Positions 4,102 to 58,642 of a stretch of 64,000 bases of DNA are shown here, one piece after another (position 1 is the stretch's first letter; every line of letters begins with the position of its first letter). Made by a program: the position numbers and the translations under genes. The notes beneath the pieces were generated by a model. The model was not told the DNA's origin. It saw only the letters and a program-made list of their open reading frames with translations, and searched no databases. This stretch comes from Candidatus Hodarchaeota archaeon (lineage in GTDB: Archaea; Asgardarchaeota; Lokiarchaeia; Sigyniarchaeales; SOKP01): contig JBHLJY010000002.1 of NCBI GenBank assembly GCA_048887225.1, positions 32,001 through 96,000 of the forward strand. The letters run 5' to 3'.

Positions 4102-4308
4102 ATGGGAAGGAAAAAAAAACCAAAAGAACTAATTCCACAACCTAAGAGCCGATTTTTAAGAGTTAAGTGCTTGAATTGTGGAAATATCCAAATAATTTTC
4201 GGCTGTTCAGCTACAGACGTTGAATGCTTAGTCTGTGGAAAAACACTGCTCCAATCTACTGGTGGCAAGGCTCGAATTCTTACAAAGATATTAGAGGTCC
4301 TTTCCTAA
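4102..4308 (+). CDS. rps27e: 30S ribosomal protein eS27
   Basis: [20 protein letters not shown]...[16 protein letters not shown]. Confidence 0.95.
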
Positions 4309-15847: not shown

Positions 15848-16453
15848 TTATAACCTCAATTGATGAGCTACATCCCCATAATCATTTGCGAGTTTTCTTT
15901 TTTCAAAATTCCCACACAGACCGCATTTTAACTTATTAGTTCCGATTTTTTTGAGGGTTTGGCCACAGATCGAGCAGTCAGAGTGTATTACACCTAAATT
16001 TTTACCTACAGTACTTAATGTATATTCATTAGCGTTTTTATTAATCACAGTAGCCCTAATAATATCTGTAAGTTGAAAAGCATCATTAATTTTTTCTATA
16101 TATCTATTAGATATTTGCGAAACATGAATATTTCCTATATAAGAAGAATTAAAATGAATTTTTCGATTAATAGTATTAAAAGTAATTCCTATAGAAAATT
16201 TACGCAAAAAAACGACGGTTCCGATTATAATATCTCCTACATTAACAGTTTTTCTATCTTTTTCTTGATGTGTTTTTATCTCAATTTCTCGTTTTTTTTC
16301 GTCTATTGAAATCAAACCTGTTTTAGTGGCAAAAATTTGCCCCTCTTTAATGTATGTTGATTGCTCATCTGGCAGAAATTCTTCAACGACTCCTAAATAT
16401 TGTCCAGCAATAACAATCTCTTTATTTTTCGCCGTTTTTTTCACATTTCTCAT
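15848..16453 (-). CDS. csl4: Exosome RNA-binding cap protein Csl4
   Basis: GQYLGVVEEFLP, S1 domain (IHVSQIS..DIIRATVI), LGVIHSDCSICG..LKCGLCGNFEKRKLA. Confidence 0.93.
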   Translation of the reverse strand: MRNVKKTAKNKEIVIAGQYLGVVEEFLPDEQSTYIKEGQIFATKTGLISIDEKKREIEIKTHQEKDRKTVNVGDIIIGTVVFLRKFSIGITFNTINRKIHFNSSYIGNIHVSQISNRYIEKINDAFQLTDIIRATVINKNANEYTLSTVGKNLGVIHSDCSICGQTLKKIGTNKLKCGLCGNFEKRKLANDYGDVAHQLRL

Positions 16454-54518: not shown

Positions 54519-56429
54519 CTATTCACCCTCTTTTTCAAAAAAGACCTCGTAAAATAGCTCTTTTTCCCCTGCTTCAGGAGGGGTAATTATTGTTCGACCA
54601 CCTTTTTTTATTATATGAACAGTTTCTTTATTTTGAATATGGATATTTCCGTAAAAACCCTTAATTCCCTTTTCTTTTGCAATTTTTATAAGGTGGTTAT
54701 AGATAAAGGAAGCAATACCTTTTCCTCTCCATTCCTCCTTCACAACAAAACTAAATTCTGCCATGTTATTTTGGGGATTTAAATAATAAGTAGCATTTCC
54801 TACCATTTCTTGATTACCAATATCTCCTACAAATGTACCAATCGAAAATATGTTATGATAATCAATATTAACTTCATATTGAGCTTTTGAATGTGTAAAT
54901 TCTTTTTTCACTTCAAAGAATCTTAAATAACGATCTCTCTCATCTAAGGAATAATATAAATCTTTTAATAGCGGTTCATCAGTAGTATTTACTGGTCTAA
55001 TAATAACTTTTTTATTATTTATCATAAAAGAGGTTTCATATTGTTTAGGATATAAACAAATATTTCCATGCTCATCACATGGTAAAATTTGGTCTGAATA
55101 AACATATTTTAATGCCTTTGCATCCTCTAATAATTGCTGTCTAAAATTTGGATGTGCTATACAAATTAATTCAATAACTCTGTCGCGAATTGTTTTACCA
55201 TGTAAATAGGCAACACCCCACTCGGTAACAACATAACGTACATCCCCACGAGATAACATCACTCCGGCGCCTTCATCTAAATGGGATACAATTCTAGATT
55301 TTTTACCATCTCTAGTTGTTGATGGCATTATAATAATAGGTTTGCCGCCCTTAGAAAATGCAGAACCTCTCATAAAATCAATTGTTTCTCCTAACCCCGA
55401 ATAAAAAGAATAACCTTCTGTTGAAGCATTTACTTGTCCAGTAAGATCTATTTGTCGTGCTGAATTAATTGAAACCAAATTTTTATTTTTTCCAATAACC
55501 CTTGGATTACACACGAAATCTGATGTTCGGAATTCAATGTAGGGATTATTATGTATAAAATTGTATAATTTTTTAGTTCCTAAGGCAAAGCTAGTAACTA
55601 TTTTACCCGGAAAATAGTTCTTTTTTCTACAAGTTAGAACACCATTTTCGATAAGTGGTATAACATTATCCGTAATATAATGGGAATGCATACCTAGATC
55701 TTTTTTATCCTTAAGATGTTTTAAAACTGCGTTTGGTAAATCTCCAAAACCCACATGGATGGTTGACTTATTTTGGACTAGTGTTGCTACATTTTGACCA
55801 ATTCTCTCAGCAATTTCATCTGGTTCATCAAAATGAAATTCTAATAAAGGAGCGTCATTAAAGACAAAATAATCAATTTCCTTCATATGAATAAAACTAT
55901 CTCCCAGAGTCCTCGGCATTTGAGGGTTAATTTCTGCGATAATTAAAGAAGCTGATTGTGTTATTGGTTTCGCTATGTCTATGTTTATTCCAAATGAACA
56001 GAATCCATAGGGATCTGGTGGAGTTATTTGAATAAGAGCAACATCAATATATTTTCGCCCAGAGAGAAATAATAAAGGAATTTCACTTGCATAAATGGGC
56101 GTATAATCTGCTTGTCCGCTATTTATTTCCTCTCGAAGAATTCTTCCAATAAAAAAAGCGTTATGTCGAAACAAATCTTCCTTTTTATCTTTCCCGAAGT
56201 ATTTCTCGGGACCAGCATCTAGAAAATGAAGAATTTCGGTATCAATTAAACTTTCTGATTGCTTTATTAATTCTGATGTTAATGCTTGCGGTTTACTACA
56301 GCCAGAATCAATGAATACACGGTTACCAGGAAATATTTTTTTAATTGCATCTTCAGCGGTAATTTCCTTATCTTTCCATTTTTCTCGCCATTCTTGATCG
56401 ATAATATTCACTTTCTCCATTCTAAACAC
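54519..56429 (-). CDS. Acetyl-CoA hydrolase/CoA-transferase-like domain fused to a Pat-type GNAT acetyltransferase
   Basis: ADYTPIY, EINPQMPRTLGDS, INSARQIDLTGQ, VVTEWGVA; GNAT RYLRFF, AEFSFVV, WRGKGIA. Confidence 0.88.
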   Translation of the reverse strand: MFRMEKVNIIDQEWREKWKDKEITAEDAIKKIFPGNRVFIDSGCSKPQALTSELIKQSESLIDTEILHFLDAGPEKYFGKDKKEDLFRHNAFFIGRILREEINSGQADYTPIYASEIPLLFLSGRKYIDVALIQITPPDPYGFCSFGINIDIAKPITQSASLIIAEINPQMPRTLGDSFIHMKEIDYFVFNDAPLLEFHFDEPDEIAERIGQNVATLVQNKSTIHVGFGDLPNAVLKHLKDKKDLGMHSHYITDNVIPLIENGVLTCRKKNYFPGKIVTSFALGTKKLYNFIHNNPYIEFRTSDFVCNPRVIGKNKNLVSINSARQIDLTGQVNASTEGYSFYSGLGETIDFMRGSAFSKGGKPIIIMPSTTRDGKKSRIVSHLDEGAGVMLSRGDVRYVVTEWGVAYLHGKTIRDRVIELICIAHPNFRQQLLEDAKALKYVYSDQILPCDEHGNICLYPKQYETSFMINNKKVIIRPVNTTDEPLLKDLYYSLDERDRYLRFFEVKKEFTHSKAQYEVNIDYHNIFSIGTFVGDIGNQEMVGNATYYLNPQNNMAEFSFVVKEEWRGKGIASFIYNHLIKIAKEKGIKGFYGNIHIQNKETVHIIKKGGRTIITPPEAGEKELFYEVFFEKEGE

Positions 56430-56602: not shown

Positions 56603-58642
56603 ATGTCAAAGGAAGAAAAAATAGCAACTGTTCTTACTGAAGATCGGAAATTTGATCCTTTAGAATTGAATCCGGATTTTTCCAAGACAGGAATAACCTT
56701 TGAAGAATATAAAAAACTCTGGAAACGGAGTGTTGAAGATTTGGAGGGTTTTTGGGGAGAACAGGCACAATCATTAGATTGGTTTGAGCCTTATGAAAAA
56801 GTCTGGGAGAGAACAGAGAATGACTTATTCCCAGGCAGGTGGTTTATCGGAGGTAAATTGAATGCAAGTTATAACTGCATTGATAGACATATTAAAGCAG
56901 GAAAAGGGGATAAACTTGCTATAATATGGGAAGCAGATGAGCCTTGGCAGGGAAGGACGTTTACATTTAAAGAGCTTAAAAGTGAAGTGTGTAAAGTTGC
57001 TAATGGAATGAAAAAGCTTGGGTTGAAGAAAGGAGATCGAGTTACTATATGGCTTCCAATGGTGCCCGAATTAGCGATTATAATGCTCGCCTGCGCTCGA
57101 CTTGGCGTTATTCATTCTATTGTGTTCGGAGGGTTTTCGAAAGAAGCTGTAAAAGATAGAATAGGCGATTCTAACTCTAAACTTTTATTTACCAGCGATG
57201 AAACGGCCAGAGCTGGAAAAACCTATCCAAAAATGGCTGATGTTGCTCAGATTATTGATGATGTTCCAACCATAGAACACGTAATTGTAGTTAAGCGAAC
57301 TGGAAATGAGGTACCGCATACTGACAAGGACATTTGGTACCACGAGCTTATTGAAGGGATGAGCGAAGAGTGTGAGCCTGAGGTAATGGACTCTGAGGAT
57401 ACCTTGTTCATTCTCTATACAAGCGGCACGACGGGAAAGCCGAAAGGCGTTAAGCATACCACTGCGGGGTATCTTCTTTATACGTCTTTTTCACATAGAG
57501 TCGTGTTTAATTATCAAGAGAAAGATATCTGGTTTTGCACCGCTGATGTAGGCTGGATTACGGGGCATAGCTATATTGTTTATGGACCATTGGCTAATGG
57601 TGCCACGACAGTAATGTTTGAGGGTGTGCCCACTTATCCCGATGTTGATAGGTTCTGGGATATGGTTGAAACCTATAAGATTACTCACTTTTATACTGCT
57701 CCAACCGCAATACGATCATTAATGCGATATGGCGATAGACCTGTTCTTAGGCATGATCTGAGCTCATTAAAGGCATTAGGGACTGTGGGAGAACCGATTA
57801 GCTATGGGAGAACCTCATAGTTCGGGAATAATCCCGAAGCCTGGACTTGGTATCATAGAGTGGTTGGAAAAGAAAGATGCCCGATTATAGACACCTACTG
57901 GCAAAAAATACGAGCATTTAGCTAGTATTTGCTAACAGAAACGGGCGGATTTCTTTTAACCCCTATAGCAACCGCAACGCCTACAAAACCCGGATCCTGC
58001 TGCCTCCCATTCTTTGGGATTAATCCAGTAATTTTTGATATAGAAGGAGATGAAGTAACTGATCCGGAGGAGGGGGGATATCTCTCAATCGGACCTAATC
58101 CATGGCCTGGAATTCTCAGAGATGTATGGGGCGATACAGAGCGATTCAAAAGAACTTATTTGGAGAAATATAAAGGTTACTATTATACAGATGATGGTGC
58201 ACGACGAGATGAGGACGGCTATTACTGGATTCTTGGTAGATTAGATGATGTAATTAAAGTTTCGGGTCATAGAATCGGCACCATGGAAGTGGAATCCGCA
58301 ATAGTGAGCCATCCAAAAGTAGCTGAAGCTGCTGTTGCTCCATTTCCACATGATATTAAAGGACAGGCAATTTGGGCTTTTATTACATTAATGGAAGGGG
58401 TAAAAAAAACCGTTGAGCTAAAACGTGACATCAAAATGCATGTAAGAAAAGAAATCGGTCCCGTTTTCCAACCAGACGTGGTTCAATTTGCGGATTCCTT
58501 GCCTAAAACGAGGAGCGGTAAAATTATGCGTAGAATATTAAAAGCGATTGCTTCAGGTACAGATATTGGAGACGTTACTACGCTCGCTGACCCTTCTGTT
58601 GTAGACGCTTTATTAGAAGAAAGAAAGAAAATAGAGACATAA
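56603..58642 (+). CDS. acs: AMP-forming acetyl-CoA synthetase, predicted spliced from three exons (56603-57798, 57829-57905, 57936-58642; 659 aa)
   Basis: [59 protein letters not shown]; all three segments are in one frame, separated by two 30-nt inserts each containing an in-frame TAG. Confidence 0.93.
57799..57828 (+). other. Putative 30-nt relaxed bulge-helix-bulge/loop intron 1 in acs
   Basis: tagctatgggagaacctcatagttcgggaa; 9-bp intron stem 57800-57808/57814-57822, central helix ccg/cgg plus an A.G mismatch, bulges at^t and aa^t; removal gives CCG ATT AAT CCC (PINP). Confidence 0.7.
57906..57935 (+). other. Putative 30-nt canonical bulge-helix-bulge intron 2 in acs
   Basis: aaatacgagcatttagctagtatttgctaa; central helix ggca(57900-03)/tgct(57930-33), bulges aa^a and aa^c, intron stem aatac/gtatt, exon pairs ct/ag; removal gives TGG CAA ACA GAA (WQTE). 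Confidence 0.82.

Follow-up and report, generated by a model that had tools for sequence, protein, structure and literature searches.

Known introns of tRNA type and the acs locus

In textbook accounts the protein genes of prokaryotes are uninterrupted. The closest described relative of the case reported here is the bulge-helix-bulge (BHB) intron in the pre-mRNA of cbf5, the pseudouridine synthase gene of Crenarchaeota (Watanabe 2002; Yoshinari 2006; Yokobori 2009, PMC2738675). Here we consider two 30-nt inserts in acs, the gene for acetate-CoA ligase (Acs), found in a stretch of 64,000 nucleotides from Candidatus Hodarchaeota archaeon (assembly GCA_048887225.1, contig JBHLJY010000002.1, positions 32,001 to 96,000). 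This whole stretch is referred to as the window, and positions are those of the window unless a contig is named; acs occupies 56603-58642 on the forward strand. With a probability of roughly 0.85, the acs inserts are BHB (tRNA-type) introns of the mRNA, removed by the splicing endonuclease EndA and the ligase RtcB.

Like the cbf5 intron, the acs inserts are short, lie in an archaeal coding sequence, have BHB boundaries and occur in a host that appears to possess a heteromeric EndA. In both cases the intron is patchily present among relatives, pointing to gain and loss. Relative to cbf5, several features are new. A gene can hold multiple introns (two here and up to five in a relative), which are uniformly tiny, at about 30 nt; the host gene is a metabolic one, and it is one of many interrupted genes in this genome, that of the ligase RtcB among them. 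The Asgard host, the rapid turnover of presence and absence and the existence of stop-free, 'hidden' copies in acs also set the two systems apart. Finally, splicing of cbf5 has been proven experimentally, whereas that of acs we infer.

Outside tRNA and rRNA, EndA also processes a BHB in the 5' untranslated region (UTR) of the Haloferax volcanii HVO_1309 mRNA (PMC7714728). The resemblance to acs lies in the presence of an EndA substrate in an mRNA. However, the HVO_1309 site is in a UTR and not within codons, and there is no frame to restore. The same paper, from 2020, still counts one mRNA for EndA-type splicing of a coding sequence, and a paper from 2025 (PMC12397907) cites only the cbf5 work. 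In the literature up to 2025 we found no description of coding-sequence BHB introns beyond crenarchaeal cbf5, to which the Haloferax 5'-UTR substrate can be added.

The BHB introns of archaeal tRNA genes (bioRxiv 10.64898/2026.10.13.758758; PMC5829648) share with the acs inserts the motif, the predicted enzymes, the cut rule and a history of repeated gain and loss; there, relaxed motifs are tolerated by an (alpha-beta)2 EndA with an L1 loop. Unlike in tRNA, the host RNA of the acs inserts is an mRNA, so the exon-side strands of the helices must also encode conserved protein motifs. Splicing of acs must moreover compete with translation, and in-frame stops truncate the unspliced products.

In eukaryotes, the HAC1/XBP1 messages are cleaved by Ire1 and rejoined by RtcB (metazoa) or Trl1. 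As would be the case for acs, a short mRNA intron is excised by proteins rather than by the spliceosome, a tRNA ligase joins the exons, and the unspliced message yields no active protein. Unlike acs, the HAC1/XBP1 system relies on Ire1 and on two 7-nt stem-loops and serves stress signalling, while nothing indicates regulation at acs. The resemblance is one of function and does not imply membership of one family.

The interrupted acs gene

The acs gene is read in a single frame from the ATG at 56603 to the TAA at 58640-58642. The sole interruptions are a TAG at 57818-57820 and a TAG at 57923-57925, one in each insert; apart from the two inserts, its 2 kb contain no lesion. Exon 1 (56603-57798) ends ...GTVGEPI. 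Exon 2 (57829-57905) consists of 25 codons followed by the first base of a Thr codon, which exon 3 (57936-58642) completes (a|ca) before continuing with ETGGFLL up to the stop. All three lie on the forward strand, separated by candidate introns 1 (57799-57828) and 2 (57906-57935), each of 30 nt.

Alignment with the orthologues of 14 related genomes places exactly 30 extra nt after the GEPI codons and another 30 after the YWQ codons. The inserts thus split two core motifs of Acs, GEPI|NPEAW and YWQ|TETGG. Their deletion in silico yields a 659-aa protein in which GEPINPEAW and YWQTETGG are both whole. Against the acetate-CoA ligase profile (NCBIfam NF001208/TIGR02188), exon 1 covers positions 21-391 with 555 bits and exon 3 positions 418-647 with 324 bits, the middle exon filling the gap. 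Each score is below the whole-protein cut-off of 657 bits, and their sum exceeds it. The sequence also aligns across both sites with solved structures of Acs (7kcp, 2p2f, 1pg4 and others; E about 1e-64 to 1e-67), relative to which each 10-codon segment is an insertion inside a core motif. The closest AMP-ligase paralogue in the genome is only 28% identical, so acs is a single-copy gene.

A first-pass annotation of the window, made from the letters alone, had already described two acs pieces and a gap sharing one frame, a TAG in each insert, an otherwise intact gene and exactly 30 plus 30 extra nt in conserved motifs. The read-through from the ATG at 56603 to the TAA ending at 58642 bears out the former points, and the orthologue alignment and the solved structures agree on the latter.

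Shape of the inserts and register of the predicted cuts

The two inserts have a common build (1+9+5+9+4+2 = 30), comprising the third nucleotide of the 5' bulge, a stem, a loop, the return strand, the central-helix nucleotides and two bulge nucleotides. In intron 1, 57800-57808 pair with 57814-57822 to form a stem of 9 bp, closed by a 5-nt loop (57809-57813). The central helix opposes accg (57793-57796) to cggg (57823-57826), with 3 of 4 pairs formed, and is followed by two bulge nucleotides. The 5' bulge is 57797-57799, its third nucleotide being the first of the intron. Beyond a small internal loop, ggga (57787-57790) and tccc (57832-57835) form an exon-exon outer helix of 4 bp, and the whole is a relaxed BHB.

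Intron 2 is, in this genome, a canonical BHB. Its stem has nine positions with one mismatch (57907-57915 with 57921-57929) and a 5-nt loop (57916-57920). All four pairs of the central helix are present (ggca 57900-57903 with tgct 57930-57933), the bulges are aaa (57904-57906) on the 5' side and aac (57934-57936) on the 3' side, and two outer exon pairs (ct 57898-57899 with ag 57937-57938) flank the motif. Helices on either side of the motif, inner intronic and outer exon-exon, are thus present at both inserts. The predicted folding of both regions is more stable than that of dinucleotide shuffles (z = -2.3 to -3.4). For insert 2, the centroid fold of a 48-nt segment shows the BHB (z = -3.1), and none of 200 shuffles folds as well; for insert 1, z is -2.8 to -3.4.

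Cutting after the second bulge nucleotide restores both protein motifs exactly, as the first-pass annotation had stated, and the 659-aa product follows. In this genome (designated G000, with acs locus L001; G001, G002 and G021 are relatives, and other L-numbers are acs loci), the protein constraint leaves three equivalent cut positions because bases repeat. For intron 1 these are 57798/57799/57800, and the last codon of exon 1, att, is unchanged by the choice. In some relatives (the L033 type, L069 and L079) the 3' bulge reads ATC instead of AAC, and only a cut after its second nucleotide rebuilds the Thr codon A|CA. The cut register of intron 2 is therefore fixed.

These split codons also bear on the idea that ribosomes hop over the inserts, as in the programmed translational bypassing of phage T4 gene 60. 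A hairpin with an in-frame stop in a short untranslated gap does resemble a bypass element. However, take-off and landing codons do not match, the stop is the seventh codon rather than adjacent to the take-off codon, and the BHB geometry is left unexplained. Moreover, both the AT|C variants of insert 2 and the RtcB gene discussed below (T|AC) have a split junction codon. A hop cannot build a split codon; only joining of the RNA can do so. Among all the alternatives considered, bypassing is the one to which we give the least credence.

Inserts among related acs loci

The host belongs to the Promethearchaeota (Lokiarchaeota-type Asgard archaea). Loci of acs were gathered from 40 relatives, 80 metagenome contigs and 80 species-representative contigs. 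In the 89 loci holding both flanks, the GEPI-to-ETGG spacing takes three values only: 78 nt (76 loci), 108 nt (8) and 138 nt (5). Over the whole gene, the 158 loci have inserts of 27-60 nt at just seven sites. Insert 2 is present in 19 of these loci and insert 1 in five, at constant site and length and in independent assemblies.

Among ten distinct copies of insert 2, standard pairs occupy 88.7% of the cells; shifting the 3' partners by 1-3 columns lowers this to 29-51%. Of the nine pairs in the inner stem, seven have changed on both sides. None of 500 shuffles reaches the observed covariation score; as the sequences are kindred, such shuffle counts overstate independence, and the slid controls, which keep the relatedness and give far lower pairing, are the fairer comparison. 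In the five copies of insert 1, 91.8% of the cells pair (21-45% in slid controls) and five pairs have changed on both sides. One central-helix pair of insert 1, 57796/57823, is G-C here and A-U in G001. Its exon-exon pair 57790/57832 covaries at synonymous third-codon positions (GGA..AAT versus GGG..AAC).

The canonical cut rule restores the consensus protein at six of the seven acs sites, including those with frame-shifting inserts and split codons. Thus a 60-nt insert of G001 gives back the junction YP|DVD. In L073, the junctions YPDVD|RFW, KVTH|FYTAP and YPGYY|YTGDG are restored by removal of, respectively, 33 nt, 30 nt with a perfect 4/4 BHB, and 32 nt that shift the frame. L073, the metagenome contig Ga0180438_10056895, has five acs inserts in all (33, 30, 30, 27 and 32 nt), four of which fit the BHB rule; these begin at 2376, 2451, 2667 and 2972, and the 27-nt insert lies at about 2858. 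Three of the four fitting inserts lack a stop codon, so that the open reading frame (ORF) would run through them.

Insert 2 of L069 and of L079, and several inserts at other acs sites, are likewise free of stops. An in-frame TAG per insert, as first described, is therefore true of this genome and not of several relatives; it is a common feature of acs inserts and not a defining one. This is relevant to the possibility that translation includes the inserts and decodes TAG as an amino acid (pyrrolysine, or through a suppressor), yielding an Acs with two loops of 10 residues. In favour of such recoding, both stops are TAG and in frame, and the stop-free inserts of relatives would translate through. 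Yet the best TIGR02367 match in the genome scores 35 bits against a cut-off of 178, indicating absence of PylS, and no tRNA with a CUA anticodon is among those detected by ARAGORN, whose detection is incomplete here. The other introns of this genome carry TAA or TGA, or shift the frame. The 10-codon peptides that the acs inserts would encode are not conserved, whereas the RNA pairs covary, and the loops would fall inside the GEPINPEAW and YWQTETGG core motifs. We consider recoding very improbable.

Among insert-bearing acs genes dN/dS is 0.03-0.07, and synonymous differences amount to 0.5-0.8, near saturation. The insert-bearing gene has therefore been kept functional over a long divergence. 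This is hard to reconcile with the view that acs is, or is becoming, a pseudogene whose inserts are insertion scars with chance hairpins, as two in-frame stops and the truncated products issued by gene callers might suggest. The length differences across the two sites are only +30 and +60 nt, the stems show compensatory changes, the single-copy gene has no other lesion in 2 kb, and the RtcB gene, single-copy and indispensable, has a like architecture. Pseudogene status is excluded by selection, by the exact lengths and by the covariation, and we give this reading scarcely any weight.

Presence of the inserts is patchy on a protein tree of 78 loci, and well-supported branches force at least seven changes. 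Between very close sisters (L002/L020, L043/L042 and L073/L029), an insert is cleanly present in one and absent from the other. This pattern fits repeated precise loss (or gain), not decay. The comparison of relatives called for by the first-pass annotation thus turned up structured, covarying inserts rather than random decay. In one instance the histories of gene and insert disagree. Between L055 and G000, insert 2 shows a single difference. By gene sequence and by insert 1, however, L055 falls with L069 and L079, in which the stem of insert 2 is quite different. This suggests recombination or transfer of an intron-bearing segment.

The public protein collection contains clusters (P0001, P0006, P0017, P0048, P0070 and P0120) of truncated Acs of 430, 405, 427, 404 and 403 aa, one of them with 37 members. 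Their lengths are those expected from gene calls that end at intron stops. Intron-bearing acs alleles are common in environmental data, where they are annotated as fragments or 'partial'. That annotation would misread acs had been anticipated, and the 405-, 430- and 404-aa entries are cases in point.

Splicing machinery and the interrupted RtcB gene

Two EndA homologues of 201 aa, both above the TIGR00324 cut-off, are encoded in the assembly (3.27 Mb, 98% complete), at C1:186656-187258 on the forward strand and at C3:60321-60926 on the reverse strand. One has the Tyr/His/Lys pattern, and the other is without the His. The Asgard EndA has been reported to be an (alpha-beta)2 enzyme with an L1 loop, which is linked to broad substrate specificity (Kaneta et al., PMC5829648). 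The two genes are consistent with an enzyme of this kind. The Asgard host and the enzymes named by the first-pass annotation are borne out: the lineage is Asgard, and both EndA subunits and RtcB are encoded. ARAGORN detects 32 tRNA genes in the whole genome, a count that is incomplete, and 15 of them contain introns; tRNA genes beyond these 32 were probably missed owing to non-canonical or multiple introns, of the kind that a preprint on Asgard tRNA genes describes. That preprint documents tRNA genes very rich in introns, with great abundance in some Asgard classes, and does not treat protein genes (bioRxiv 10.64898/2026.10.13.758758).

The sole RtcB gene is itself split, at Pfam position 47/47, by a frame-shifting insert of 29 nt (contig C13:33458-33486), which was found independently by a structure scan. 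It is a canonical BHB with 4/4 central pairs (TTGG/CCAA), bulges ata and aaa and a stem of 8-9 bp. Its removal gives the junction GGVG|YDINCG, in which the Tyr codon is split T|AC. The insert is shared, with pair-preserving changes, by G002, of the same genus (C3, about 15990-16017), and by G021, of another genus (C222, about 4233-4260). Both genomes have just this one RtcB gene.

RtcB is indispensable to an organism whose tRNAs need splicing, and the insert must therefore leave the RNA. No other single observation argues as strongly for action of the pathway on mRNAs here. It would also mean that the ligase needed for splicing depends on splicing itself.

Other interrupted genes in the genome

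Besides RtcB, the canonical cut rule restores a protein collinear with paralogues or motifs in six further genes of G000. These are an unnamed gene (C4:215764-215799, 36 nt), an aldolase-like gene (C1:321212-321243, 32 nt), a thiolase-like gene (C6:91561-91594, 34 nt), the gene for acetoacetate-CoA ligase (C1:83789-83818, 30 nt), iolM (C41:6078-6107, 30 nt) and an FGGY kinase gene (C5:191631-191663, 33 nt). Hence acs is not a special case but one of many interrupted genes in this genome. The nine verified introns of G000 are unrelated in sequence and share a shape, and no further copy of any of them is found in the genome; the idea of a mobile element was rejected on this ground. The acs introns thus appear to belong to a genome-wide population of mini-introns in the protein genes of this lineage, each unique in sequence and about 29-36 nt long, with one in the sole RtcB gene.

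Further cases were sought in two ways. A census required strict BHB geometry and the joining of two long open frames upon removal, with cuts shifted by 1-2 nt as controls; its counts are given in the next section. One strict-scan candidate, C35:13626-13655, was rejected since it is a gene boundary (KGGK-stop, then M-AYDLFLGCV). In the other approach all ORFs of at least 150 aa were compared with the genome by tblastn, which works only for families with paralogues in the genome. It recovered acs, the thiolase-like gene, iolM, the C4 gene and the aldolase-like gene. Many of its matches proved to be repeat proteins, boundaries between genes, or HdrA-like genes with a TGA codon. Five HdrA-like genes (two sites on C1, then C8, C12 and C16:29225) contain this codon in frame where a Cys is conserved (..FPTDDC[AS]I-TGA-[IV]LGP..). 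These TGAs are probably selenocysteine codons, not introns or breaks.

In the window, searches with Rfam and ARAGORN gave no match. Divergent from acs lies a gene (54519-56429, reverse strand) for a 636-aa protein in which, according to Pfam, the N- and C-terminal domains of acetyl-CoA hydrolase/transferase are fused to a C-terminal GNAT acetyltransferase. By analogy with the lysine acetyltransferases of Pat type, it may be an acetyl-CoA-sensing regulator of Acs.

A model for splicing of the acs mRNA

The following sequence of events is proposed. Together with the exon bases on either side, each insert of the transcript would form an outer helix between the exons, followed by a 3-nt bulge, a central helix of 4 bp (the exon 5' strand against the 3' end of the intron), a 3-nt bulge on the opposite strand and a hairpin of 9 bp with a 5-nt loop. 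A heteromeric (alpha-beta)2 EndA would then cut after the second nucleotide of each bulge. RtcB would join the exon ends, a 2',3'-cyclic phosphate and a 5'-OH, and probably circularise the excised 30-mers. The mature mRNA would direct synthesis of the normal 659-aa acetate-CoA ligase, while translation of unspliced RNA would end at an in-frame TAG, giving a 405-aa fragment. Cutting and joining of the acs RNA, with EndA and RtcB as the agents, is what we infer from these data.

Several observations weigh against this model. In the register of insert 1 that restores the frame, an A.G mismatch lies at the outer end of the central helix in all five copies. Insert 1 thus lacks the canonical BHB form, and in its register of minimum free energy (ccga/tcgg) 28 nt would be removed and the frame shifted. 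The first-pass annotation had indeed called insert 1 relaxed, and its 9-bp stem, its three of four central pairs and its frame-shifting optimal register agree with this. The canonical geometry claimed for insert 2 is found in this genome (4/4 pairs) and not in most relatives; the fourth central-helix pair is mismatched in nine of the ten distinct copies, making them the relaxed form. The 27-nt insert of L073 (query position 478) breaks the BHB rule and is the one exception among the seven acs sites; it may be a true protein insertion. Structure-plus-ORF scans of the genome revealed no enrichment over shifted cuts, whether with flanks of at least 70 codons (243 versus 217-241) or with looser limits (2186 for the canonical rule versus 2113-2367). 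Lastly, an insert-free Acs identical to the exons of this genome is absent from a large protein collection, where the best matches are 92% identical; we count this here, although it is evidence neither way.

No total number of introns is given because ordinary gene boundaries swamp the scan signal. The search for other short BHB inserts, advised at the outset, succeeded for RtcB and six more genes and failed as a statistical test, and the genome-wide extent therefore rests on individually verified cases.

The prevalence of the relaxed form also leaves some room, though not much, for a different RNA-level route. The inserts could be removed by enzymes other than classical EndA and RtcB, or EndA cleavage could serve mainly to down-regulate or inactivate the acs message, with inefficient rejoining. 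Both inserts are relaxed rather than canonical in most copies, the sequence data do not identify the enzymes that act on them, and ligation capacity could be limiting since RtcB itself needs splicing. On the other hand, the exact junction follows from the canonical two-bulge ruler at six of the seven acs sites and in seven other genes. The genome relies on EndA and RtcB for its tRNAs, and recourse to another nuclease or ligase would be less economical. Strong purifying selection acts on all three acs exons and calls for a joined product. Such a route is in our view improbable, if less so than pseudogene decay or recoding, and splicing of acs by EndA and RtcB is the preferred explanation.

A broader proposal extends the EndA/RtcB model to the whole genome. 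It holds that mini-introns of about 30 nt, spliced by the tRNA machinery, form a dynamic, genome-wide set in this Promethearchaeota genus. They would be quickly gained and precisely lost, some of them stop-free and hidden in ORFs, and the self-dependence of RtcB would create a feedback loop over acs and other metabolic genes. Here we see the odds as even.

Biological meaning

If the inserts are spliced, this Asgard archaeon routinely interrupts metabolic and even RNA-processing genes with introns of tRNA type, and the ligase that completes the splicing depends on its own activity. Gene callers would then misannotate these genes, taking them for fragments, for pseudogenes or for proteins with spurious loops of 10 residues. 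This would bias the metabolic reconstructions of Asgard metagenome-assembled genomes, Acs being central to models of acetate metabolism.

With five to seven sites in one gene and a clean presence/absence polymorphism, acs offers a tractable system for the origin, persistence and precise loss of introns near the eukaryotes. The broader proposal, if true, would mean that interrupted protein genes exist in a prokaryotic form, catalysed by proteins, among the archaea most closely related to eukaryotes.

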